A DNA stretch of 64,000 bases from Clostridia bacterium (GTDB lineage Bacteria > Bacillota > Clostridia > Oscillospirales > CAG-272): assembly GCA_017938885.1 (NCBI GenBank), contig JAGBAS010000093.1, positions 3,190 through 67,189 of the forward strand, written 5' to 3'. Of this stretch, positions 3,012-63,003 are shown piece by piece. The notes under the pieces were generated by a model. It saw nothing but the letters and a program-made list of their open reading frames with translations. It searched no databases and was not told the DNA's origin. Each line of letters begins with the position of its first letter. The stretch's first letter is position 1. A program made the position numbers and the translations under genes.

Positions 3012-3132
3012 AGAAAAAGGACCCGAACCGAACAGCAATGTGTTCGATTCAGGTCCTTTTTATGGCGGAGATGGAGGAACGCCGGTCATGTACACGACGG
3101 CTTTTTCTCCCTTAGAGAGCTATATTATAGCA
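3012..3132 (-). repeat. Hairpin+GGCGGAG module, subtype 1, degenerate copy (a)
   Basis: A 16-bp stem (ggacccgaaccgaaca / tgttcgattcaggtcc) is flanked by A- and T-runs. It is followed by tggcggagatggaggaacgccggtcatgtacacgac. A TGcTATAAT box lies on the minus strand at 3124-3132, but there is no -35. The module sits just downstream of the stop of 3152-4570. Confidence 0.6.
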
Positions 3133-13648: not shown

Positions 13649-13692
13649 GCTGACACCGAGCACACGTCCTGTTGCAATCATTAAAGGCAAAA

Positions 13693-13753
13693 AAGAACCT
13701 AAAACAAACAACAGCCTGTGCCTAATGTTCGTTTTAGGTTCTTACCGGCGGAG
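13693..13753. repeat. Hairpin+GGCGGAG module (f), fused to a recombinase gene fragment
   Basis: Stem aagaacctaaaacaaaca / tgttcgttttaggttctt, then ccggcggag. The sequence after that differs from all other copies and runs into the recombinase fragment. Confidence 0.6.
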
Positions 13754-13799
13754 GGAGTAGGATTCTCATTGAACACCTGTCCAAGCTCCATCCAAACTC

Positions 13800-13988
13800 T
13801 ACAAGGAAGCCTTGGCTCTTGAAGCCCAGATGCTCATCAACTATCTGGTGGATGAGATCGTCATGTATGATGACAAAATAGAGATATTTTTCCATAAGCC
13901 TACGCGGAACAGTCCCGATGAAAGTCGGGGCTGTTTTGTTTATAAGGGGAGGAAGGAAAAATTCGATGTCGAGATATGGATCGTGTGA
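13800..13988 (+). pseudogene. Large serine recombinase, 3'-terminal 62-codon fragment
   Basis: YKEALALEAQMLINYLVDEIVMYDDKIEIFFHKPTRNSPDESRGCFVYKGRKEKFDVEIWIV* is collinear with the C-terminus of 42120-42986. The following 75 nt or so are also shared. Confidence 0.8.
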
Positions 13989-14063: not shown

Positions 14064-14212
14064 CAAAAAAATAAGAACCTAACCCAAACACCGGCTATGC
14101 CATGTGTTCGTTTTAGGTTCTTACCGGCGGAGATGGGGGGATGTCATTCATGTACACAACAGTTTCTTCTCCCCGGCGGGCTGTATTATAGCACAAAAAA
14201 CTATTATGTCAA
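14064..14212 (-). ncRNA. Candidate small transcription unit (b): consensus promoter, conserved box, intrinsic terminator; an sRNA or a proline-rich micro-ORF
   Basis: Minus strand: TTGACA (14207-14212), N16, TGcTATAAT (14185-14193), about 45 nt, ATGAATGACATCCCCCCATCTCCGCCG, a 17-bp hairpin, then a T-run. Same architecture as 43062-43212 and 62518-62650. Confidence 0.4.
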
Positions 14213-14375: not shown

Positions 14376-14798
14376 CTAAATCGAATTATTCGGTTTAGGT
14401 TGTTTTTCTTTTTGTCTCAAAGCGTTTTCAGATGGTGATCGTAAGCCGTATATTCTTCCGTTTAGCTCATACGAGTTCTGGATATGCGCCGGTATGGTCG
14501 TTTCCCTGTCGCAAACAGAAAGGCCCTGACTTGCGTCAGGACCCGTCTGTAAGGGGTTATTGAAATAGATGTGTATTTCGTTGTCGAATACGATGATCTC
14601 GCTTATCAGGAAGTTTATGAGCATCTGAGGCTCCTTCAAGAAGGCAGACTCATAGTAGGCGCTGATTTCCTTTTCACTCACCTTGACCTGCATCTTGCTA
14701 GCCTCGCATGAACAATTTATACTATGCTGAACGTGCATATAGATTACTTGATTTTTTCTTTTACGAAGTGACAAGGCGACACCGCCTGACAGGATCAT
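14376..14798 (-). pseudogene. Diverged large serine recombinase, C-terminal fragment
   Basis: KEISAYYESAFLKEPQMLINFLISEIIVFDNEIHIYFNNPLQTGPDAS aligns with EEIKMYYKEALALEAQMLINYIVKEIVMYDDKIEIFFHKPTRNSPDES of 42120-42986. No catalytic resolvase domain is present. Confidence 0.6.
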
Positions 14799-31853: not shown

Positions 31854-31906
31854 AAAAAGGCCCGAACCGAACAAATCACGTTCGATTCGTGTCCTTTGTG
31901 GCGGAG
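31854..31906. repeat. Hairpin+GGCGGAG module (g)
   Basis: ggcccgaaccgaaca / cgttcgattcgtgtcc hairpin with A/T-run flanks, then tggcggagatggag. Confidence 0.6.
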
Positions 31907-32014
31907 ATGGAGAGATATTGAACCTCCTCGCTCCGCTCGGGGCAAGCCGCCCCGGGGCTTATCTTCAACCGATTTCTCTTGCGGCTTGCAGAGATTTCAA
32001 GCGGCTCCCCAGCC

Positions 32015-32100
32015 CCGCCAATAAAAAAGACACCGACGAGCGGTGTCTTTTTTATTGGCGGAGGGAGTGAAACGTAAAACGACCCTTTTTGAATCATCTA
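32015..32100 (-). repeat. Hairpin+GGCGGAG module, subtype 2 (h): perfect 21-bp inverted repeat plus conserved 3'-UTR box
   Basis: ccgccaataaaaaagacaccg-acgag-cggtgtcttttttattggcgg (32015-32061), then agggagtgaaacgtaaaacgaccctttttgaatca. It lies about 70 nt downstream of the stop of 32171-38854 and works as a bidirectional terminator. Confidence 0.7.
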
Positions 32101-32170
32101 CATTCCACACCTCCGCTCAAACCCGCAGGGACAAGCCTCACAGGTCATACCGGCATTCGGAAGCCTTGCG

Positions 32171-35100
32171 TCAGGCTCGTTTCAAATAATAACCCTTGTA
32201 GGTGGTGACCATAGCCGTCGCTGCGCTTGCAGGATCGGACAACAGCGCGCTATCAATGGCCGTACCGCTCGTCGCGGTGGAGGAGGAGGTATACCACCAG
32301 CCCTCGGTGGTCTCAAAGCGGATCTCGGTCAACGCCGAGCAGTTGGCAAAGACGTTATAGCCAAACTTGACCACGCTGGCGGGAATGGTGATCGAAGTCA
32401 GCGCCTTGCAGTTGTAGAAGGTGCCGTTCTCCAGTGCCGTCACGCCCGCAGGGATATTCACCGTGGTCAGGGATGTACAGCCCGAGAAGGCACTCTCGCC
32501 AATGCTCACGAGTCCTTCGGGGAGGGTGATCTCGGTGAGGGATGTACAGTTTCTGAACGCATGCTTTCCGATGGAGGTAACGGTACTCGGGATGGACACC
32601 ATTGCGAGGGACTGGCAGTTGTCGAATACGCCCTCGGCAATACTCGTGACTCCCTCGGGGATGAGAATGGCGGTCAGCTTTCGACAGTCGTACAAGAGGT
32701 TGTATTCCAGAGCCGTCAGACTTGCGCTGAGCTTGACAGACTCCAGGGACCGACAGGTCGCAAAGGCGGAGGAGCCGATGGAGGTGACCGAATCGGGGAT
32801 CACGATCTCTCGGAGCTTGGTGTTGTTGAACGCCGAGGATCCGATGGTGAGAAGCCCCTCGGGGAGCGTCACCCGCTCCAGAGCGGTGCAGACATAGAAT
32901 GCGTTACCTCCCACAGAGGTCACACCGACGGGAATGGCGATCTCGGTCAGGCTCGTACAACTGTCAAAGGCGTTATTGCCGATGGAGGTCACCCCGTCGG
33001 GAATGATGATGGACGTCAAGGCCTTACAGGATCTGAAGGCGCTCGCGCTGATGGCCGTGATGTTTTTGCTGAGGGTAACGTTTGCCAGCTTTTCGCAGTA
33101 AGCGAAGGCGTGCTCGTCGATCAGGGTCACGCTGTCGGGGATCACGATGGCGGTGAGGGACTTACAGCTATTGAACGCGCTGTAGCCGATCTTGATCAAG
33201 CCATCGGGCAGGTCGATGGAGGTGAAGGGACAGTTGTTGAAGGCGTACCGTTCAATGCTGATAAGGGTGCTCGGCAATGTGACCGAGGTAAGATCATAGC
33301 AGTATTGGAAGGCGTTTTCGGGGATGACGGTGACACCCTCGGGAATGGCGATGGAGGTAAGGGCATTGCACTTGTAAAACGCATATTTCCCGATGGTCCT
33401 GAGGGTACAGGGCAGGGTGATATCCGAAAGCAGGGTACACTCGGAGAACGCTTTCTCGCCGATGGTCACGAGTCCTTCGTGCAGGGTCAGGTCGGTGAGC
33501 TTGACACACTTTTCGAATGCGGCCTGTCCGATCTCGGTGACGTTCGCGGGGATCTCCAGAGAGGCAAGAGCGGAGCAGTTGGAGAATGCCCACGTGGGAA
33601 GCACTTTGACACCCGAGCCAATGGTAACACTCGTTAAAGCGTTGCAATCGCTGAATACACTTTGTCCTAGGGAGGTCACACTGTTGGGAATGACGATGGA
33701 AGAAAGTGCCTTACAGTAACGGAAGGCGTCCTTACCAATGGCAGTCACGCCCGCAGGGATCTGAATGCTCGCGAGGGCATGACAGCTGTTAAAGGCGGAT
33801 TCGTCAATGCTCGTCAGGGTCGCGGGGAGAGTCACCGAAGTCAACGCCTTACAGTTTTGGAAGGTGCTGCGCTGAATACTCGTAACTCCCTCGGGGATAA
33901 CGATCTCGGTCAGCACCGAGCAGTTGTTGAAGGCGTATGACCCAATGGAGGTAAGGGTGTCGGGGAGCCGGACGCTCGCGAGCTTGCTACAGCCGTTGAA
34001 GACCGATTGACCGAGGCTGACGAGACCATTGGGAAGGATTACGGCGGTCAGCGCGGAGCAGTTGGAGAAGGCTTCATAGCCGATGCTTTCAAGACCCTCG
34101 TTGAACACGATGGATCCCAACGCGCGGCAATCCGTGAAGGCCCTTTGACCGATACTGCGCACGCTTGCGGGGACGGTGACGGTCGTCAGCGCCCTTGCGC
34201 TACTGAACGCGTAGTCCGAGATGATCGTGAGGCTTTCGGAGAGGGTGATCCTCTCCAGAGCGGTACAGCCGTAGAAGGCGTAGGCATCCATAGAGGTAAT
34301 GCTGTCGGGAAGGATGATCTCGGTGATGCGGGAGCAGCCCGAGAAGGCGGAATAAGACAGATTGGTGAGATTTTCGGAGAGGGTGATCTTCTCCAGCGCG
34401 CTACAGCCGTTGAAGGCGTGGCCCTCCATGAAGGTAATGCTGTCGGGAAGGATGACCTCGGTGATGAGAGTACAGCCATAGAACGCGTGGTATGCCAGAG
34501 TGGTCACCGCCGCTCCATTGTAGGTGGCGGGGAGCAGGATCCTCGACGGCATATCGTTCTTGCTCTTCATCTTGATGGAGTAGGTGCCGTCGGCAAGCTC
34601 TGTAAAGGTGAAGTAATCCGAGTGAGTCAGTCCACAGTATACGCAGTTGCCGCCCTCGTATTCGTGATCCCTGACCTCCACAAAGCTGTCCACGCGCACG
34701 TCGCCGCAAAGGTTACAGGTGTGGGTGGTGTAGCCTCGCTCACCGCAGGAGGCAGGAGTGACAACGGCCGTATAAGTGTGCCCCGTGGCAGGGATCGTCT
34801 GCTGAGCGGCGAGGACTTCGCCGCAGACCGAGCATTTCTTGCCGGCGGTCAGACCGGAGGCGGTACAGGTAGCGTTCACGGCGGGGATGATCTCTTCGGT
34901 GTGGCCAAGAGCCAATACGGTGTGCTGTGTTTCAAGAACCGCATGGCAAACCGAGCATTTCACGCCCTCGGTCAGTCCCTCCTCAGTACAGGTAGGCGCG
35001 ACGGCGGGGATGGTTTCATGGGTATGACCCGTTGCAGGGACGGTCTGCTGCGCGGTGATGATCTCGTCGCACACCGAGCATTTCGTGCCCTCGGTCAATC

Positions 35101-38100
35101 CCTCCTCGGTGCAGGTGGAGGCTACGGCGGGGATAACAACCTCGGTGTGACCCGTGGCGGTCACCTCGCTGTCGGTGTAGGCATGACCGCAGACCGAGCA
35201 GGTATGGGTGGTGTAGCCGCCCGTGGTACAGGTGGGAGACATCACGACAGAGCCGTAGCTGTGTCCCGTGGCGGGGATCCGTCCCTGGGAGGTGAGGATC
35301 TCACCGCAGACCGCGCACTTCACGCCCTCGGCAAAGCCGTCCTCGGTACAGGTGGGGGGAACGGCGGTCAGGGTCTGCTCGGTGTGTCCCTTGGCGGCGG
35401 TTTGCCCGTCGGTGTACATATGGCCGCATACGGAGCAGGTATGGGTGGTATAGCCGCCCGCCGTACAGGTGGGTGCGGTTACAACGCTTTGGTAATCGTG
35501 CCCCTTAGCGGGAACGGATTGCTGAGCCGTAAGAATCTCGCCGCAAACAGCGCATTTTTCGCCCTTGGTAAGACCCGCTTCGGTACAGGTAGCGTCAGCA
35601 GCGGGGAGGACTGCGGGAGTATGCCCCTTGGCGGGTACGATCTGTTGTGCGGTGATGATCTCATCGCATACCGAGCATTTGATGCCCTCGGTTAGTCCCG
35701 TTTCGGTACAGGTCGCCTCCATAGCGGGAAGCGTCTCGTGTGTGTGTCCCGTAGCATTCACACGGTCATCCGTGTAACGATCGCCGCAGGTACAGGTATA
35801 TGTGGTATACCCTTCAGCCATACAGGTGGGGGCGGTGATCGCGGCTTCGTAGGTGTGCGCAAGCTTAGGGATCTCTTTGGCTTCAACGTGTCCGCAATGC
35901 TCGCAGTCTCGTTTGCTTTGACCGAGCTCTGTGCAGGAGGGAGCTTTGAACTCATACCATTCCCCAAACTCATGGGGAATTCTATCTACGTAATTACCTA
36001 TGTACGAGTCACCGCATTCGCTACAGGTGTAGGTAGTATAGCCCCGTTCCGTACAGGTAGGAGGTGTTATGACAGCGTCGTAGGTATGGCTCAGCATACC
36101 GATGATCTCGGTCTCAAAGTAATCGCAATAGGCGCAATCGCGTCTCTTTTCGCCGTTTGAATCATAGGTAGGCGCAACCGTTTCTCTCCATTCACCCATG
36201 GCATGGGGAACGGTATTCGTATAATCCGCCACATAATGGTAGCCACAGGCACAGGTGTAGGTGGTATAGCCCTGCGCGGTACAGGTGGGAGCGGTCACAA
36301 CGGCGGCATAGCTGTGTCCCGTTGCGGGCGTATGCTCGCCAACGTAACTGTCGCCGCAAGCACAGGTATAGGTAGTATAGCCATCTGCCGTACAGGTGGG
36401 GGCGGTCACCACGGAATCATAGCTGTGTCCCGTGGCGGAAACCATCGTCTGCGCGGCGAGAATCGCGTGACAAACGGAGCAGTGCTTGCCCTCGGTCAGT
36501 CCCGTCTCGGTGCAGGTGGGAGCCACGGCGGCGTCGATCACCTCGGTGTGACCCGTAGCGGCTACCGTCTGCTGTGCCGCAAGGACTTCGCCGCAGACCG
36601 AGCATTTTTCGCCCTCGGTCAAGCCCGTCTCGGTACAAGTGGGCAGAACGGCAGGGATGGTCACCTCGGTGTGACCCTTGGCGGGTGTCTGTCCGTCGCT
36701 GTAGGCATGGTCGCACTTGGTACAGGTGTGGGTGGTGTAGCCATTCGTGGTACAGGTGGGGGCGGTCACCACGGAATCATAGCTGTGTCCCGTGGCGGAG
36801 ATGGCCCGGAGCTCGGTCTTTCCGCACTTATTGCAGGAACGAACTCTGGTTCCTTCTTCGGTGCAGGTTGCTTCCTGAACGGTTTTCCATTTTCCGAACG
36901 CATGGCTACATTCAGGCTCGGACACTCCCGAAAAGTGCATGGTGGCGTTCAGGAGCGGATCATTATACAGCCCGATGTCGATTTGATTCCACTCTGCTTG
37001 GGTGCCGTCATAGTACACGTCGGTGAGGTGATCGGTGTTGAAGAAGGCGGCCTCTCCGATAGCCGTTACGCCGGCGGGAACAGAGATCTCAGTCATGGCA
37101 GGACAGTTCGAGAAGGCGTACTCGTCAATGAAAGTCAGGCTGTCGGGAAGGGTGACGGTTGCGAGGAGACTGCAATCCATGAAGGCATCATGACCGATGG
37201 AGGTCACGCCCTCGGGGATCGTGACGGACACTATGCGATCGCAATCGTAGAAGGCGTATTCCGGAATGGCGGTCAAGCCCTTGGACAGCTTGACGAATGA
37301 CATAGAGTAGCAAGCGTAGAACGCGTAGGCTCCGAGAGACGTGACGCTGTCGGGAAGGGTGATGAGGGGAAGGGCTTCACAATTCTGGAAAGCACCCTGT
37401 CCGACGTGGGTGAGGGTATCGGGGAGGATCACTCTGGTCAGGCTCGTGCAGAGGAAGAAGGCATTATATCCGATGGAGGTGATGCCCCTCGGGATCATGA
37501 CGGTTTTGATGCTCGCACAAACCGCGAAGGCCTGATCGCCGATGGCCGTCACGGTATCCCCCTTGGGGCTGACCGTGGGAATCACCACGACAGTATCCCT
37601 GCAAGTACCCATGCCGCTGACATAGCAGGTACCGTCGCCGTTGGAGGTGAATGCCAATCCGACCGAGGGAGACAGACTGAACTCCCCGCACAAATAGCAA
37701 ACGCCCTCAATAAATACGTGGTCAATGGCCGCGATCTGGCGGATCTCTATGGAACCGCAGGCAAGGCAGGAACGGGACGCCGAGCCCTCCTGACCGCAGG
37801 AGGGGGCCTTGACCTCGTGCCACTTGCCCATCTCGTGCCCCAGAGCGTCCACGTAGTTGCCCACGGTGGTCAAGCCGCAAACGCAGCTTCGGGTGGTGTA
37901 GCCCTGCTCGGTACAGGTGGGGGGCGTGACTACACTGGTGTATTTATGCCTGATACGGGGGGTAAAGTTACTCTCATAGGTATGCCCGCAGGTACAGGTA
38001 TAGGTGGTGTAGCCCACCGAGCTGCAGGTAGCGGGAGTTACCTCGGTTTGATACTGATGTTCTGTGGTCGGGGTGTAATCATCCCGATAGGTGTGTCCGC

Positions 38101-38854
38101 AGGCGCAGGTGTAGGTAGTATAGCCCTCGGTGGCGCAGGTGGGCTCTGTGACCGCCGTCTCGTACTGATGCCCTTCGGCGATGACGAAATCATCCCGATA
38201 GGTGTGTCCGCAGGCGCAGGTATAGGTGGTGTAGCCGTCCAGGGCGCAGGCGGGCGGGGTGACGGCGGTCTCGTACCGGTGCCCCGTGGCGGGGATGTAA
38301 TCACCCCGATAGGTATCCCCGCAGGCGCAGGTATAGGTAGTGTAGCCGTCCTGCGCACAGGTGGGCGGTGTGACCTCGGTTTCATACTGATGCCCCGTGG
38401 CGGGGATATAATCCTCCCGATACAGATCCCAGCAGTGGCATATGTAGGTGGTGTAGCCATCTTCGGTACAGGTGGGAGGCACCACCTGGGCGGTGTAGGT
38501 GTGTCCCGTAGCGGGCACGGAACGGGTCTCGGCCAGGTTACAAACCTGACAAACCGAGGACTCCTCTCCCGCCTCGGTGCAGGTGGCGGGCTTGGTCTCC
38601 GTCCACTCCCCCATGGTATGCCCGAGCCTGTCGATCAGCTCCAGCTCAAACTGCTGACAGCCCTCCACGGTGCACAGCTTGGCCCGCACGCCCTGGGTGG
38701 AGCAGGTCGGAGCCAGCACCTCCTGCCATTCGCCGAGGATATGCTCGTGCTCGGGAACTTCTACGTTGGGATCCGTCTCGTCACAAGCTGTAAGCGTGCA
38801 TAAGAAAAGCAACGCCGTCAGGATCATGCACAGCATCAAAAATTTCTTTTTCAT
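32171..38854 (-). CDS. Giant (2227 aa) lipoprotein: two blocks of about 33-aa His/Cys repeats alternating with two BspA-type leucine-rich-repeat blocks
   Basis: Lipobox LFLCTLTAC. About 28 repeats of two types: ATGH.Y..VVT.PTCT..GYTTYTC.CG and ATGHTE.I.AV.PTCTE.GLTEG.KCSVC. LRR units: IPEGVTSIG..AF..C..LTSVTLP..L. The C-terminal 80 aa or so are non-repetitive. Confidence 0.85.
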   Translation of the reverse strand: MKKKFLMLCMILTALLFLCTLTACDETDPNVEVPEHEHILGEWQEVLAPTCSTQGVRAKLCTVEGCQQFELELIDRLGHTMGEWTETKPATCTEAGEESSVCQVCNLAETRSVPATGHTYTAQVVPPTCTEDGYTTYICHCWDLYREDYIPATGHQYETEVTPPTCAQDGYTTYTCACGDTYRGDYIPATGHRYETAVTPPACALDGYTTYTCACGHTYRDDFVIAEGHQYETAVTEPTCATEGYTTYTCACGHTYRDDYTPTTEHQYQTEVTPATCSSVGYTTYTCTCGHTYESNFTPRIRHKYTSVVTPPTCTEQGYTTRSCVCGLTTVGNYVDALGHEMGKWHEVKAPSCGQEGSASRSCLACGSIEIRQIAAIDHVFIEGVCYLCGEFSLSPSVGLAFTSNGDGTCYVSGMGTCRDTVVVIPTVSPKGDTVTAIGDQAFAVCASIKTVMIPRGITSIGYNAFFLCTSLTRVILPDTLTHVGQGAFQNCEALPLITLPDSVTSLGAYAFYACYSMSFVKLSKGLTAIPEYAFYDCDRIVSVTIPEGVTSIGHDAFMDCSLLATVTLPDSLTFIDEYAFSNCPAMTEISVPAGVTAIGEAAFFNTDHLTDVYYDGTQAEWNQIDIGLYNDPLLNATMHFSGVSEPECSHAFGKWKTVQEATCTEEGTRVRSCNKCGKTELRAISATGHSYDSVVTAPTCTTNGYTTHTCTKCDHAYSDGQTPAKGHTEVTIPAVLPTCTETGLTEGEKCSVCGEVLAAQQTVAATGHTEVIDAAVAPTCTETGLTEGKHCSVCHAILAAQTMVSATGHSYDSVVTAPTCTADGYTTYTCACGDSYVGEHTPATGHSYAAVVTAPTCTAQGYTTYTCACGYHYVADYTNTVPHAMGEWRETVAPTYDSNGEKRRDCAYCDYFETEIIGMLSHTYDAVITPPTCTERGYTTYTCSECGDSYIGNYVDRIPHEFGEWYEFKAPSCTELGQSKRDCEHCGHVEAKEIPKLAHTYEAAITAPTCMAEGYTTYTCTCGDRYTDDRVNATGHTHETLPAMEATCTETGLTEGIKCSVCDEIITAQQIVPAKGHTPAVLPAADATCTEAGLTKGEKCAVCGEILTAQQSVPAKGHDYQSVVTAPTCTAGGYTTHTCSVCGHMYTDGQTAAKGHTEQTLTAVPPTCTEDGFAEGVKCAVCGEILTSQGRIPATGHSYGSVVMSPTCTTGGYTTHTCSVCGHAYTDSEVTATGHTEVVIPAVASTCTEEGLTEGTKCSVCDEIITAQQTVPATGHTHETIPAVAPTCTEEGLTEGVKCSVCHAVLETQHTVLALGHTEEIIPAVNATCTASGLTAGKKCSVCGEVLAAQQTIPATGHTYTAVVTPASCGERGYTTHTCNLCGDVRVDSFVEVRDHEYEGGNCVYCGLTHSDYFTFTELADGTYSIKMKSKNDMPSRILLPATYNGAAVTTLAYHAFYGCTLITEVILPDSITFMEGHAFNGCSALEKITLSENLTNLSYSAFSGCSRITEIILPDSITSMDAYAFYGCTALERITLSESLTIISDYAFSSARALTTVTVPASVRSIGQRAFTDCRALGSIVFNEGLESIGYEAFSNCSALTAVILPNGLVSLGQSVFNGCSKLASVRLPDTLTSIGSYAFNNCSVLTEIVIPEGVTSIQRSTFQNCKALTSVTLPATLTSIDESAFNSCHALASIQIPAGVTAIGKDAFRYCKALSSIVIPNSVTSLGQSVFSDCNALTSVTIGSGVKVLPTWAFSNCSALASLEIPANVTEIGQAAFEKCVKLTDLTLHEGLVTIGEKAFSECTLLSDITLPCTLRTIGKYAFYKCNALTSIAIPEGVTVIPENAFQYCYDLTSVTLPSTLISIERYAFNNCPFTSIDLPDGLIKIGYSAFNSCKSLTAIVIPDSVTLIDEHAFAYCEKLANVTLSKNITAISASAFRSCKALTSIIIPDGVTSIGNNAFDSCTSLTEIAIPVGVTSVGGNAFYVCTALERVTLPEGLLTIGSSAFNNTKLREIVIPDSVTSIGSSAFATCRSLESVKLSASLTALEYNLLYDCRKLTAILIPEGVTSIAEGVFDNCQSLAMVSIPSTVTSIGKHAFRNCTSLTEITLPEGLVSIGESAFSGCTSLTTVNIPAGVTALENGTFYNCKALTSITIPASVVKFGYNVFANCSALTEIRFETTEGWWYTSSSTATSGTAIDSALLSDPASAATAMVTTYKGYYLKRA

Positions 38855-42119: not shown

Positions 42120-42986
42120 ATGAGCATACCCAACACCCGACCTATGCTCCCCCGACCCTGCCGAAATGGCTCGCGAACAGCGAAGCTGTTCAGAAAATCG
42201 GGAGGTATAGAAGAGGTATTTGAGAATATGTATCCGCAAATCGTGCCCCGGGAGATTTTCGACCGCGTGCGAAGCAAGATCACCGCCAACAAGTACGGCA
42301 AGCTAAGCGTGGAGGTGGTCTACCTACTCCGTCACAAGCTCAAATGCGGTTACTGTGGCCAGCCCATCAGCGCAGAAACGGGTACATCCAAGACAGGAGC
42401 CAAAAAGCGCTACTACAAATGCTACGGTCGCAAAAATCACAACGGATGCCAAAAGTCCATGATGCGGAAGGATCAGCTTGAAAATCTGGTGGTATCCACC
42501 ATCATCGACGAGTTATCCAAGCCCAAGACCCTTGACCAGATCGTAGCCGGGCTTCTGGAGGAACAGGAACGGTACATCAAGGAACACTACATGCTGAACG
42601 TACTACTCCGCGAGCAGCGGCAAGTCGAAACCTCCATTGAGAACGTCATGGAGGCCATCGAGCGAGGTGTGATCACCAACACGACCACCAAGCGTTTGAA
42701 GGATTTGGAGGCGAGACAGGAAGAGCTTGACAGGCAGATCCTCATAGAGAGAAGCAAAAACGCAGTGAGGGTATCCGTCGAGGAAATCAAGATGTACTAC
42801 AAGGAAGCCTTGGCTTTGGAGGCCCAGATGCTCATTAACTATATCGTGAAGGAGATCGTCATGTACGATGACAAGATCGAAATCTTTTTCCATAAACCTA
42901 CACGGAACAGTCCCGATGAAAGTCGGGGCTGTTTTGTTTATAAGGGGCGGAATGAAAATTTCGATGTCCAGATATGGATCGTGTGA
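42120..42986 (+). pseudogene. Large serine recombinase lacking the N-terminal catalytic (resolvase) domain
   Basis: VFENMYPQIVPREIFDRVRSKI is the end of the recombinase domain. KCGYCGQPISAETGTSKTGAKKRYYKCYGRKNHNGC is the zinc ribbon, followed by a coiled coil. The first 25 codons or so look unrelated, and there is no Ser-nucleophile domain. Confidence 0.75.
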
Positions 42987-43061: not shown

Positions 43062-43212
43062 CAAAAAAGAAGAACCTAAGACAAACAACAGGCTATGCCT
43101 AGTGTTCGTTTTAGGTTCTTACTGGCGGAGATGGGGGAATGCCATTCATGTACACAACACCCTGTACTCCTTAAGGTGGCAATATTATAGCATAAAAGGG
43201 ATTTTATGTCAA
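43062..43212 (-). ncRNA. Candidate small transcription unit (c): consensus promoter, conserved box, intrinsic terminator
   Basis: Minus strand: TTGACA (43207-43212), N17, TGcTATAAT (43184-43192), ccttaaggag..., ATGAATGGCATTCCCCCATCTCCGCCA, a 17-bp hairpin, then a T-run. It is convergent with the recombinase fragment. Confidence 0.45.
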
Positions 43213-43271: not shown

Positions 43272-43313
43272 ACAAAGGGCTGTTATTTCCATCAAGAAAT
43301 AACAGCCCTTTGT
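43272..43313. repeat. Perfect 18-bp inverted repeat with a 6-nt loop
   Basis: acaaagggctgttatttc-catcaa-gaaataacagccctttgt. Confidence 0.85.
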
Positions 43314-43508
43314 CATTCAACACTTCGAATGCGTTTTTCGATTTCAGCTCCAGGCAGCCTTAGCGACTGTTTTTCAATCCAATGTTTACGTTGCTTCTTG
43401 GCAGTCTCATGGACCTTTATCAAAACACCCTTACTGAAATTATGATGAAAGTAAATACAAATGTGTGAGCACACCTAGCGTTAAGCTAATCTTTTTTTTA
43501 AGTTTAGC

Positions 43509-43600
43509 AAAAAAAGAACCCGAACCAAACAACAATGTGTTCGATTCAGGTCCTTTTTGTGGCGGAGGGTGTGAGACGTAAAACGACCCTTTTGAATCGT
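43509..43600 (-). repeat. Hairpin+GGCGGAG module, subtype 2 (i), in the 3' UTR of 43640-46330
   Basis: gaacccgaaccaaaca / tgttcgattcaggtcc hairpin with A/T-runs, then tggcggagggtgtgagacgtaaaacgacccttttgaatcg. Confidence 0.7.
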
Positions 43601-43639
43601 TTCCGTTTCCCGTCTCCTCATCCACCTCAACCGAGCGGA

Positions 43640-48975: not shown

Positions 48976-49062
48976 GCAAAAAAAGAGCGAGTCGGACACT
49001 TTTTAGGTGTTCAACTCGCTCTGACTTGGCGGAGATGGGGGAATGCCATTCATGTACACAAC
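48976..49062 (-). repeat. Hairpin+GGCGGAG module, subtype 1 (d), without an intact promoter
   Basis: gagcgagtcggacac / gtgttcaactcgctc hairpin, then tggcggagatgggggaatgccattcatgtacacaac, identical to the box in copy c. Confidence 0.65.
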
Positions 49063-49206
49063 ATTCTTTCCCCCTCAGATGTCCATACGAGCATCCGATG
49101 CCCCCCTTGTTCTCGTCAACCCTCAGCTCGAAAACTCATGCGACCGAATATACTCGATAAAAGCCCTCAGACTCTTTGACATCCATTTATTCTTATGATG
49201 GATCAA

Positions 49207-61236: not shown

Positions 61237-61593
61237 TCAGTATAATACTCCGGGTTTGCTTTCCCGTATAGCTTTGGGCTGTTCGATCTCCAGCCCCTCC
61301 AAAAGCAAGCGGATCTCCTACTCGGTGAGGAGTCTTGCCTCGGTCTCGTTTCGAGACCAGCGGAAGGCACCGTTATCCAGCCGTATATACAGGAGCAGGA
61401 ACCCGTCTCCTTCCCAGAGTAGACCTTTGATGCGGTCCCGTCTGCGACCACAGAACAAATACAGACTCTTGTTGAAGGGATCCAAAGACAAACTGCCTTG
61501 CACTACAGCGGCAAATCCCTCGATCCCCTTCCTCAAGTCGCTGTAGCCTGTGACAAGGTACACGGCGGTGGATTGCGTTAATTCCCTCAGCAT
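61237..61593 (-). pseudogene. tnpB: IS66 Orf2 (TnpB) with an in-frame TAG
   Basis: LVTGYSDLRKGIEGFAAVVQGSLSLDPFNKSLYLFCGRRRDRIKGLLWEGDGFLLLYIRLDNGAFRW is the IS66 Orf2 signature. After the TAG at 61318-61320 the frame continues EIRLLLEGLEIEQP, the conserved LLEG tail of the family. Confidence 0.75.
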
Positions 61594-61979
61594 GACCGCA
61601 ACGCCTCAATAACTGCTCTCAGCGCCGATGGAAACGTTTCTCCGACAAACGAGATCCGAAGATCTCCGCTGACGATCTCAACGCGGCTTTCGGAGACGAT
61701 CTCTGCGCCCATGCGTATGGGCACGACCTGTTGTTTGCTCGATGATCCCGACGGCAATTCGGGTAATAGCCCCGCGCTCCGGCACAGATGCTCCCGAACC
61801 TTTCTCAATCTGTAGTAATACGTAGTTTTGCTGATCCCCTGCTGCTCGCAATAGGCGGCTATACTGAGTCCGGCTGCTTGTCTGTTTTCAATATCCTTTT
61901 TCCACCGATCTAACTGAACCCGTTCCTTGATTTCCGCAATGGCCTTAGTGGCAGGAGTCTGCTCTTTCTTGTTATTCAT
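61587..61979 (-). CDS. tnpA: IS66 Orf1 (TnpA-like HTH protein)
   Basis: MNNKKEQTPATKAIAEIKERVQLDRWKKDIENRQAAGLSIAAYCEQQGISKTTYYYRLRKV. GGAGG RBS 7 nt upstream of the ATG at 61979. Confidence 0.65.
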   Translation of the reverse strand: MNNKKEQTPATKAIAEIKERVQLDRWKKDIENRQAAGLSIAAYCEQQGISKTTYYYRLRKVREHLCRSAGLLPELPSGSSSKQQVVPIRMGAEIVSESRVEIVSGDLRISFVGETFPSALRAVIEALRSC

Positions 61980-62021
61980 GTACGTTCCCTCCGATATTTT
62001 TGTATGGTACAATCCGCTCTG

Positions 62022-62064
62022 ATTGGAGCAGTTTGAAGTACAGGTTACTTCAAACTGCTCCAAT
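62022..62064. repeat. Perfect 19-bp inverted repeat with a 5-nt loop, upstream of IS66 orf1
   Basis: attggagcagtttgaagta-caggt-tacttcaaactgctccaat. Confidence 0.85.
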
Positions 62065-62241: not shown

Positions 62242-62496
62242 TTACTTGCCTTCATTCTCTAAAAAAGCTAATAGTGCTTGGCCTTCTATAGACAGCGATA
62301 GTGCTTGAGCCGCTGTTTTTATATATTTAATGATTGGTGTTTTTAGGGACATTATTTGACACACAAGCCCCTGCTTCAAATGTACATCATCATGTTTACC
62401 ATTAACATTAATAACAGCCGCTAGCATCTTTATATTATTATTCACGCCCATGTATCTTTCTATTACTAAAAGGTTAGTAATAGTGTTCCCTTGCAT
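62242..62496 (-). CDS. Hypothetical small protein in an AT-rich insert
   Basis: 84-aa ORF in a segment visibly more AT-rich than its surroundings. It starts about 20 nt after the terminator of unit e. The RBS is weak. Confidence 0.3.
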   Translation of the reverse strand: MQGNTITNLLVIERYMGVNNNIKMLAAVINVNGKHDDVHLKQGLVCQIMSLKTPIIKYIKTAAQALSLSIEGQALLAFLENEGK

Positions 62497-62517: not shown

Positions 62518-62650
62518 AGAAAAGGACCGAACAACAACGTGTTCAATTTAGGTCCTTTTGTGGCGGAAATGGGGGAATGCCATTCATGTACACAACATCC
62601 CATACTCCTTAAGATGGCTATATTATATCACAGAAATCCTTCCCTGTCAA
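62518..62650 (-). ncRNA. Candidate small transcription unit (e): consensus promoter, conserved box, intrinsic terminator
   Basis: Minus strand: TTGACA (62645-50), N17, TGaTATAAT (62622-30), ccttaaggag..., ATGAATGGCATTCCCCCATTTCCGCCA, a hairpin (ggaccgaacaaca / tgttcaatttaggtcc), then a T-run. Confidence 0.45.
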
Positions 62651-62885
62651 CAGATTCTTCCCACCGTCGCCCCGCGGGGAATCACTCTTCCGCTTGCCTT
62701 TTCTTCCACATCGCCGCCGCGATCACATCGTTCACATTGTCTTGCTTGATGGTAGCAGGATACTTCTTGATCATTTCAGCAAGCGCTGCCCTCGCAGCCC
62801 GTTCATCCTCGCTGAGCTCCACGAACAGGGCAGAGAGATCCTCGCAGGCAAGGATCCTCTGCCATTATTTTAACTTAATGGCATT

Positions 62886-62950
62886 GCCGACGAGCGGTGT
62901 CTTTTTTATTGGCGGAGGGTGTGGGACGTAAAACGACTCATTCGAATCAT
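62886..62950 (-). repeat. Hairpin+GGCGGAG module, subtype 2 (j), with the left hairpin arm truncated
   Basis: gccgacgagcggtgtcttttttattggcggagggtgtgggacgtaaaacgactcattcgaatcat is collinear with 32033-32098 but lacks the aagacac left arm. It lies in the 3' UTR of 63004-64000. Confidence 0.65.
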
Positions 62951-63003
62951 TCATATTCTACAATTCTGACCTAAACCCCAAGACAAGCTGTATAAGGGAA
63001 CCT

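Follow-up and report, generated by a model that had tools for sequence, protein, structure and literature searches.

Tandem islands at tRNA genes are already known, and so are composite islands driven by large serine recombinases (LSRs), of the type of the staphylococcal cassette chromosome mec (SCCmec). In SCCmec and in the Enterococcus cassette chromosome (ECC), Ccr LSRs act at the 3′ end of rlmH; the cassettes occur in tandem with direct repeats of the target end, and some of them carry no recombinase. The serine integrases of phages (Bxb1, phiC31, A118) use attP and attB sites of 40–50 bp, which have only a 2-bp core in common. The CCA end of tRNA genes is a niche usually ascribed to tyrosine integrases. 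In tycheposons, tandem integrations at tRNA genes leave behind partial tRNAs and fragmented integrases (bioRxiv 10.1101/2020.12.28.424599). We analyze here a repeated unit, made of a promoter, a conserved box and a terminator, in a 64,000-nt stretch of DNA (hereafter the window) from a Clostridia bacterium (assembly GCA_017938885.1, contig JAGBAS010000093.1, positions 3,190–67,189). Our preferred explanation, to which we assign a probability of about 0.6, is that these mini-genes are chimeric pseudo-tRNA(Ser) modules that form the att-core joints between stacked, mostly decayed integrative islands arranged head-to-tail. An earlier note, made from the letters of the window alone, had presented them as an unclassified small RNA (sRNA) or micro-open reading frame (ORF) family; the evidence does not favor this view. 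What was observed directly comprises the family of repeats, the collinear position of tRNA-Ser loci beside intact LSR homologues, the breaks of homology at the box edges together with shuffled arms, and the presence in the window of ten co-oriented joints beside recombinase fragments. From these observations we infer that recombinases act at the box, with the crossover approximately at the CCA.

The locus resembles the Islander-type islands and the Prochlorococcus tycheposons in that one tRNA-type site is reused and tRNA 3′-end direct repeats lie between islands, and also in its fragmented integrases, its scattered partial tRNAs and the cargo found between joints. It differs from them in three respects: the commonest repeat is here a chimera (own promoter, GGAG, a non-tRNA hairpin and 16 nt of a tRNA-Ser 3′ end), the identity block is of 36 nt and hence extends 20 nt beyond the tRNA-like part, and the recombinases are mainly LSRs rather than tyrosine integrases. 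LSRs and tandem segments parted by direct repeats of the target 3′ end are also characteristic of SCCmec/ECC composite islands, but in the window the target-like repeat mimics the tRNA-Ser 3′ end and has its own promoter and terminator. The enzymes belong moreover to a different family, of 485-aa LSRs often paired with a REP_ORF2-G2P protein, and the array is known from sequence alone. As for phage LSR attP/attB sites, the site is located within a few hundred bp of the 3′ end of the recombinase gene and, in the tRNA-linked relatives described below, a GTTCGA/TCGAAC pair is symmetric about a CCA center; in contrast to these sites, 36 bp are identical in all copies and the left part of the box has no dyad relation to the right arm. 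With tRNA genes and minihelix RNAs the unit shares a stand-alone promoter, an RNA ending G-CCA and a terminator, and its 5′ GGAG(AAG/AUA) can pair with the 3′ (CAU)CUCC, stacked on an inner helix to give ~13 bp in total. Unlike tRNA genes, it has no D-arm, anticodon arm, variable arm or T-loop, and neither ARAGORN nor Rfam sees it. What appears to be new is the chimeric promoter-bearing pseudo-tRNA joint, the extension of the identity block past the tRNA part, and serine enzymes that seem to read the T-loop plus the CCA.

The repeat unit and the tRNA-Ser-like 3′ end of its box

The box, TGTTGTGTACATGAATGRCATYCCCCCATYTCCGCC, is 36 nt long. Four copies with zero mismatches are located on the minus strand of the window, at 14126–14161 (copy a), 43124–43159 (copy b), 62562–62597 (copy c) and 49028–49063 (copy d), the chance expectation being 0 across 100 shuffles. 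A fifth, diverged box (copy e) is on the same strand at ~3063–3098. The shared layout that had been noticed at 14064–14212, 43062–43212 and 62518–62650 was confirmed: copies a, b and c each comprise TTGACA, a 16/17-nt spacer, TGnTATAAT, a GGAG located 11 nt 5′ of the box, and a hairpin followed by a T-run. The two additional boxes reported at 48976–49062 (identical) and 3012–3132 (diverged) were recovered as well, as copies d and e. An extended −10 is present in four of the five window copies, a TTGACA −35 in three and an intrinsic terminator in all of them.

Copy b (43062–43212), the unit from which the analysis started, has its −35 TTGACA at 43207–43212, the TG-extended −10 at 43184–43192, GGAG at 43167–43170 and the tRNA-Ser-like 3′ end TCCCCCATCTCCGCCA at 43123–43138. 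Its terminator (43063–43122) is the recombinase-proximal arm D1 and includes ACCTAAAACGAAC at 43104–43116. In copy a (14064–14212; promoter 14185–14212, GGAG 14169–14172) the box ends GCCG instead of GCCA and is likewise followed by the D1 arm and terminator. Copy c (62518–62650; promoter 62622–62650, GGAG 62605–62608) has a D2-like terminator with ACCTAAATTGAAC. Copy d (48976–49090) has a GGGGGA leader and a D3 terminator arm with GAACAC, and a convincing promoter was not found in it. The promoter of copy e (3012–3132) consists of an extended −10 only (3124–3132); a GGAG at 3107–3110 precedes the box and a D2 arm follows it.

The last 16 nt of the box are the 3′ end of tRNA-Ser(UGA) minus one base, a relationship that the earlier note had missed. 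When TCCCCCATC-TCCGCCA is compared with tRNA-Ser(UGA) TCCCCCATCCTCCGCCA, both match but for one absent base, and the tRNA-Ser fragment present in the window at 31906, which ends CCATCTCCGCCA, is identical to the box over the last 12 nt. The box 3′ end corresponds to the T-stem 3′ strand, the acceptor 3′ strand, the discriminator G and the CCA, and the complementary 5′ acceptor strand is also present: the GGAG is placed like a 5′ acceptor strand because the box 3′ end is tRNA-Ser-derived. The G-C pairs of GGAG:CUCC are kept in 92–96% of rows, and a 7-bp extension of this pairing exists in some classes only. The tRNA-Ser relationship accounts as well for the gene-like layout of promoter, RNA ending GCCA and terminator, and for the 'PPSPP' ORF, which is a translation of T-stem, acceptor strand and GCCA. 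ARAGORN returned 0 tRNAs in the window and in the outside sequences L001–L019 and L024–L029, so that a tRNA-Ser cloverleaf was not found in any of them.

One scan of 185,579 species genomes yielded 19 further box copies. A metagenome scan added four, which are all canonical and hence bring no diversity for covariation, and one more copy (L029) adjoins a recombinase fragment. The family therefore amounts to at least 24 copies beyond the window, and to 29 including its five, from ~10 metagenome-assembled genomes (MAGs) plus the window. The distribution is narrow, as all outside copies come from MAGs of uncultured gut Clostridia/Eubacteriales; several genomes hold four to five copies, and many copies are at contig ends. 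The box is nearly invariant across the 29 copies, loop and unpaired bases included, and the sequence 5 nt outside it is unrelated; three copies finish GCCG and not GCCA. A scan of viral contigs for the box gave 0 matches, and a BLASTN search with the unit found no match among phage or plasmid records. Rfam likewise returned 0 matches for the whole window at the gathering score; for the unit at E≤10 there was no tRNA match, and SpF19 (E=0.19) covers the terminator only. The statement that no named RNA family can be recognized is thus borne out by both Rfam thresholds.

Recombinases, tRNA genes and exchange of arms

The association with serine-recombinase elements proposed in the earlier note is real: LSR fragments are located beside window copies, and the intact LSR P0002 carries the same arm. 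The fragments had been placed beside copies b and c; they are actually beside a and b. Convergent with copy b, the plus-strand sequence 42120–42986 encodes the C-terminal 288 aa of an LSR that has lost its catalytic domain and is 95% identical to the 486-aa P0002. A remnant of the same type, corresponding to the last 58 aa (13812–13988, plus strand; 88% identical to P0002), is convergent with copy a and is cut off by the next joint at 13753. The stops of these two fragments are located 75–100 nt past the terminators of copies a and b. A third recombinase fragment, which had gone unnoticed, is the C-terminal part of a second-lineage LSR (14376–14798, minus strand), co-directional with copy a and ending ~165 nt upstream of its promoter.

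Intact homologues of the fragment 42120–42986 are 485–486 aa long and contain Resolvase, Recombinase and Zn_ribbon_recom domains. In the contigs with intact LSRs 74–78% identical to that fragment, the position of the mini-gene is taken by a genuine tRNA-Ser gene (anticodons GCT, GGA and TGA), convergent with the LSR, 330–500 nt past its stop and transcribed from its own TTGACn-17-TATAAT promoter. These tRNA-Ser genes are followed by (g/a)t(a/t)(a/g)gaAACCTAAATCGAAC.., an arm of the same class as the terminators of copies a and b; ..gaAACCTAAATCGAACAC.. and the segment ACCTAAAWCGAAC are common to the LSR-linked tRNAs and the two window copies. When up to 7 mismatches were allowed, the box was absent within 10 kb of the intact LSR homologues (L020–L023), tRNA-Ser being present there instead. 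In L028, which contains the intact P0002 LSR, the exact copy-b arm is joined to a fragment comprising the T-arm and the acceptor 3′ strand, in place of the box. The second LSR lineage has a distant relative that is placed in the same manner beside a tRNA-Glu (CTC), with the same arm motif. The best reading of these data is that the LSR family flanking the copies has the 3′ CCA terminus of tRNA genes as its integration site; its D1 lineage is found at tRNA-Ser and the second lineage at tRNA-Glu.

At the LSR-linked tRNA genes, the GTTCRA of the T-loop is mirrored by the TCGAAC of the arm, and both are separated by the same distance (15-nt spacer) from the first C of the CCA. This geometry was seen in four tRNA contexts (tRNA-Ser GCT, GGA and TGA, and tRNA-Glu CTC), at L020 11788–11882, L022 2323–2414, L030 1764–1852 and L036 5461–5535, in each case with the 25 nt that follow. 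From the symmetry we infer that the TCGAAC arm motif is a recombinase half-site, and the GTTCRA/TCGAAC pair is a candidate recognition geometry of this recombinase family. GAACAC is conserved in otherwise different terminators because it is part of the TCGAAC that mirrors the T-loop. Box copies have the right half-site, and no matching motif is found in the left part of the box.

Some of the intact LSRs belong to small elements that consist of a REP_ORF2-G2P replication protein and a 485-aa LSR (407 aa in L035/L036), located at L020 8922–11458, L023 8902–11458, L031 358–2879 and L035/L036 2893–5224. They adjoin the CCA end of tRNA-Ser or tRNA-Glu in every contig that reaches past the recombinase stop. 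A 70-nt palindrome is common to L020 (7877–7946), L021 and L023.

For the analysis of the flanks, 24 copies were oriented on the box and compared by pairwise BLAST. In copy pairs with a common upstream flank (up to 2.1 kb) homology ends with the final C of the box (+33), and in pairs with a common downstream flank (up to 1.15 kb) it begins at −4. Across the 29 copies, the pairing of upstream with downstream arms is shuffled: upstream class C is combined with at least six downstream arms and class A with at least four, and downstream arm D3 is found with four upstream classes. JAZNJA010000183.1 also contains, between its boxes L012 and L006, the segment that extends from copy d to copy b in the window (49059 to 43155), but its outer flanks differ. 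As at att joints, recombinase genes adjoin a common core whose flanks are unrelated and shuffled. Ten tRNA-Ser-3′-end-like joints were identified in the window, all of them on the minus strand and beside truncated recombinases. The array that they form has co-oriented partial-tRNA repeats, three LSR fragments and cargo in between, and it extends past both window ends.

Several copies (d, L002, L003, L026, L010, L007, L018 and L025) have lost the promoter and kept the box. L002, L003, L026 and L010 have identical small deletions between the −35 and the −10 which leave a spacer of 6–7 nt and the box intact, and which should have killed the promoter; L024 is the undeleted form of the L010 arm.

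The following mechanism would account for these data. The recombinase-proximal end of an island would supply a replacement terminator, that is, the downstream arm; the 5′ half of this terminator bears ACCTAAAWCGAAC(AC), a probable recombinase half-site mirroring the tRNA T-loop. The distal end (upstream arm) would bring the promoter, the GGAG and the box, whose last 16 nt would copy the T-stem, the acceptor 3′ strand and the GCCA of tRNA-Ser. In a circular element or at an internal tandem joint, the two ends would rebuild a promoter, a short RNA and a terminator, and recombination at the box, either site-specific or homologous, would reshuffle upstream and downstream arms. If this is true, an LSR family uses the CCA end of tRNA genes, the T-loop serving as one half-site; its islands leave at every joint a rebuilt pseudo-tRNA with a promoter and not a bare tRNA fragment; and a 64-kb carbohydrate-degrading and surface-protein tract of a gut Clostridium was apparently built by repeated insertion at joints. 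For annotation it would follow that a promoter, a short conserved RNA and a terminator beside recombinase fragments can be an att module and not a regulatory RNA. The 36-bp core and the 485-aa recombinases may interest those who mine integrases with defined targets.

Weighing the explanations

Several observations weigh against att-core joints. No intact recombinase-bearing element bounded by two boxes, no empty site and no circular junction was found, and all the recombinase genes adjoining the box in the window are fragments. At the distal end (attR) of the tRNA-integrated elements of L020 and L036, neither tRNA 3′-end repeats nor contig comparison gave a clear joint; the search yielded only the shared 70-nt palindrome and an internal promoter. 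ARAGORN found no full tRNA-Ser in the window, and the postulated start of the array is unseen there. For canonical LSRs 2 bp of identity suffice, and a 36-bp identical core is not demanded by that chemistry. By manual comparison, the first 20 nt of the box, on its 5′ side (GTGTACATGAATGGCAT), resemble neither the T-arm half-site of the tRNA nor the inverted half-site of the terminator arm. Finally, when 11 diverged upstream classes are aligned, homology begins exactly at the −35, and the GAC of the −35, the TAT.AT of the −10 and the GAG are invariant while spacer and leader vary. A pure DNA site predicts no such conservation. As the promoter hexamers and the GGAG are the best conserved elements of the upstream arm, transcription of the unit is probably selected, and the transcript probably matters. 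Of the three proposals of the earlier note, a DNA-level recombinase site comes closest to our reading, except that the promoter flanking it is not incidental.

The predicted transcript folds in the same manner in the five window copies: GGAG:CUCC closes an inner hairpin (UGUUGU/AUGGCA, loop GUACAUGA), and the terminator follows. The z-scores range from −3.9 to −6.6 in four copies and are marginal in copy c (−2.1). The inner hairpin includes three G-U pairs and is hence strand-specific; in copy e it shows one compensatory change (U-A to C-G) and two changes from G-U to G-C. The conserved promoter and GGAG suggest that the unit would be transcribed into a tRNA-acceptor-like hairpin ending GCCA, whose role, if any, would be secondary. 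Covariation on the homologues, a check proposed at the outset, was run and is not significant (25 distinct sequences and two alternative structures; 2 double-change cells out of 325, with the observed pairing reached in 76 of 500 shuffles). Since the box is near-invariant, a covariation count on it is weak as a test.

An alternative that gives the transcript a central role is that the unit is a functional sRNA gene carried on mobile elements, a ~48-nt mimic of the tRNA-Ser acceptor/T-helix (GGAG...hairpin...CUCC-GCCA) that islands merely target. It could be a decoy for enzymes or toxins whose target is the acceptor end of tRNA-Ser. Alternatively, it could be a 5′ module, competent for processing, through which host genes separated from the tRNA promoter would again be expressed. 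The conservation of the promoter from the −35 onwards against a variable spacer and leader would fit such a gene, and so would the fold with its strand-specific pairs and the changes seen in copy e. Every copy has an intrinsic terminator, even those with arms unrelated to the recombinase arm, and a DUF6036 nucleotidyltransferase with its helix-turn-helix (HTH) partner is encoded directly upstream in class C arms. We nevertheless consider this explanation unlikely, although it is the least unlikely of the alternatives. Pairing is not supported by significant covariation, and the invariance of the box, which includes loop and unpaired bases, suits a protein-bound DNA site equally well. There are, besides, several copies with an intact box and no promoter, three copies ending GCCG, and a very narrow distribution. 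Among neighboring genes we found no protein partner consistently linked to the box, and the left part of the box, sought on both strands as an antisense target, occurs only inside box copies. The sRNA carried by serine-recombinase elements that had first been suggested stays partly alive, through a promoter conserved in 11 classes, and is not the reading we favor. Next in order, and doubtful as well, is the combination of both ideas, in which the transcribed mimic (~48 nt, ending GCCA) is the att site and the RNA itself is functional. Host genes located past the invaded tRNA locus might thereby regain a promoter and an RNase-P/Z-processable module. The RNA might instead be a tRNA-Ser 3′-end decoy for enzymes that modify the acceptor end, of which the DUF6036 nucleotidyltransferase directly upstream in one arm class would be an example. 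The unit would then double as a portable landing pad at which recombinase-less cassettes are captured and reshuffled, as in integrons.

That the units are passive scars, decayed tRNA-Ser pseudogenes and att remnants that segmental duplication and homologous recombination have spread and that have no present function in DNA or RNA, we regard as improbable. The fragmented state of the adjoining recombinase genes of the window, the other degenerate tRNA-Ser 3′ fragments of the same array and the lack of any tRNA call by ARAGORN and Rfam all agree with it. Scars, however, would not be expected to keep a box near-identical in 29 copies with unrelated sequence 5 nt outside, or promoter hexamers where spacer and leader have diverged, and the joints that do look neutral (13753, 31906 and the 'box2' joints described below) are visibly diverged. 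A stalling leader peptide or attenuator, in which translation of MNGIPPSPP would control terminator read-through, is very improbable, and we have rejected it. The proline-rich ORF exists, preceded by GGAG and with an in-frame GTG or ATG, before a terminator that in L002 is directly followed by an integrase gene; the start attributed to it, MN(G/D)IPP(S/F)PP, does not hold in copy e, which reads MTGVPPSPP. Its proline codons are the tRNA-derived CCCCC/AUCUCC/GCCA, and the poor spacing already pointed out was confirmed (17 nt from the GGAG to the ATG, 11 nt to the GTG). The ORF comprises 9–16 codons in the window and is much longer in L004, L013 and L015, so that its length ranges between 9 and >30 codons and its stop has no fixed position with respect to the terminator. 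Box substitutions show no bias to synonymous sites, and copies a and b face a convergent gene, with no gene downstream to regulate.

Box-less joints, cargo and neighboring genes

Five of the joints of the window lack the box and were found by searching for the arm motif together with CTCCGCC(A/G): three belong to a second repeat, 'box2' (62918, 43568 and 32064), and two are tRNA-Ser 3′ fragments (31906 and 13753). After each of them comes an arm of one of the types that also follow the main box. The 'box2' joint at 43512–43628 (minus strand, as are the following) is a different hairpin, ending ...CACACCCTCCGCCA and followed by the D2 arm (ACCTGAATCGAAC); its start lies just past the stop of a gene, and a promoter is lacking. 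The joint at 32020–32124 is followed by the same arm as the main box in L015 and L026, and that at 62885–62978 is located just upstream of the arm bearing copy c. The hairpin family ends CCCTCCGCCA. The repeat itself (..GATTCAAAAGGGTCGTTTTACGTCTCACACCCTCCGCCA) is devoid of a promoter and starts at most ~70 nt after a gene stop in each copy, and its 5′ GGAGG or GAGACG can pair with its own 3′ end.

The tRNA-Ser 3′ fragment at 31854–31929 has a recognizable T-arm (GGTTCAATATCTCTCCATCTCCGCCA) and precedes a D2-like arm; its acceptor 3′ strand, CATCTCC, is also that of the box. The longer region 31854–31990 (minus strand) ends GAGGAGGTTCAATATCTCTCCATCTCCGCCA, with GC-rich hairpins before this end, and is not called by ARAGORN or Rfam; it looks like a decayed tRNA-Ser gene, and might be a relic of the original target. 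The second fragment, at 13689–13778 (minus strand), is degenerate and T-arm-like (..GGTGTTCAATGAGAATCCTACTCCCTCCGCCG) and precedes a D1 arm; it is this joint that cuts off the LSR remnant 13812–13988.

With respect to the genes present in the arms, a convergent LSR is found past the terminator, and the second LSR lineage is co-directional upstream (class A arms). For this second lineage the protein database holds fragments only, and its native context is seen solely in the distant relatives beside tRNA-Glu. Further arm genes encode a primase, an IS200 transposase and the HTH/DUF6036 nucleotidyltransferase pair, and in L002 the gene beginning directly after the terminator encodes a tyrosine integrase (PF00589, 8.8e-27). 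In class C arms (L004/L008/L016) the pair consists of an HTH_XRE protein (196 aa) and the nucleotidyltransferase (244 aa), and ends 91 nt before the box; it may be toxin-antitoxin-like. Its remnant in the window is 62682–62822 (minus strand), the last 46 codons only. In L013, at ~680–1390, an IS200/IS605-type TnpA-like frame, read from the sequence, begins directly past the box; the hairpin that precedes it stands in place of the usual terminator arm.

Downstream of copy c there is an AT-rich ORF (62242–62496; 84 aa, unannotated and without a Pfam match), which lies ~20 nt from that copy and not, as the earlier note had it, from copy e. It is followed on the minus strand by IS66-family orfA-like and orfB-like frames (61318–62063), as read from their translations.

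The cargo between joints includes glycoside hydrolases, carbohydrate-binding proteins, a BspA-type leucine-rich repeat (LRR) protein, regulators and IS66 remnants. The LRR protein (32171–38854, minus strand) is 2227 aa long and has nine stretches matching the BspA-type LRR model (PF13306, E=1e-291). It ends in ...YYLKRA, and so does, in L004 and L008, the large protein encoded upstream of the class C arms. Between the 'box2' joint at 43568 and the promoter of copy b there are only ~340 nt, which contain a 53-aa ORF (43313–43474, minus strand) with its own terminator; this segment looks like an island shrunk to almost nothing.

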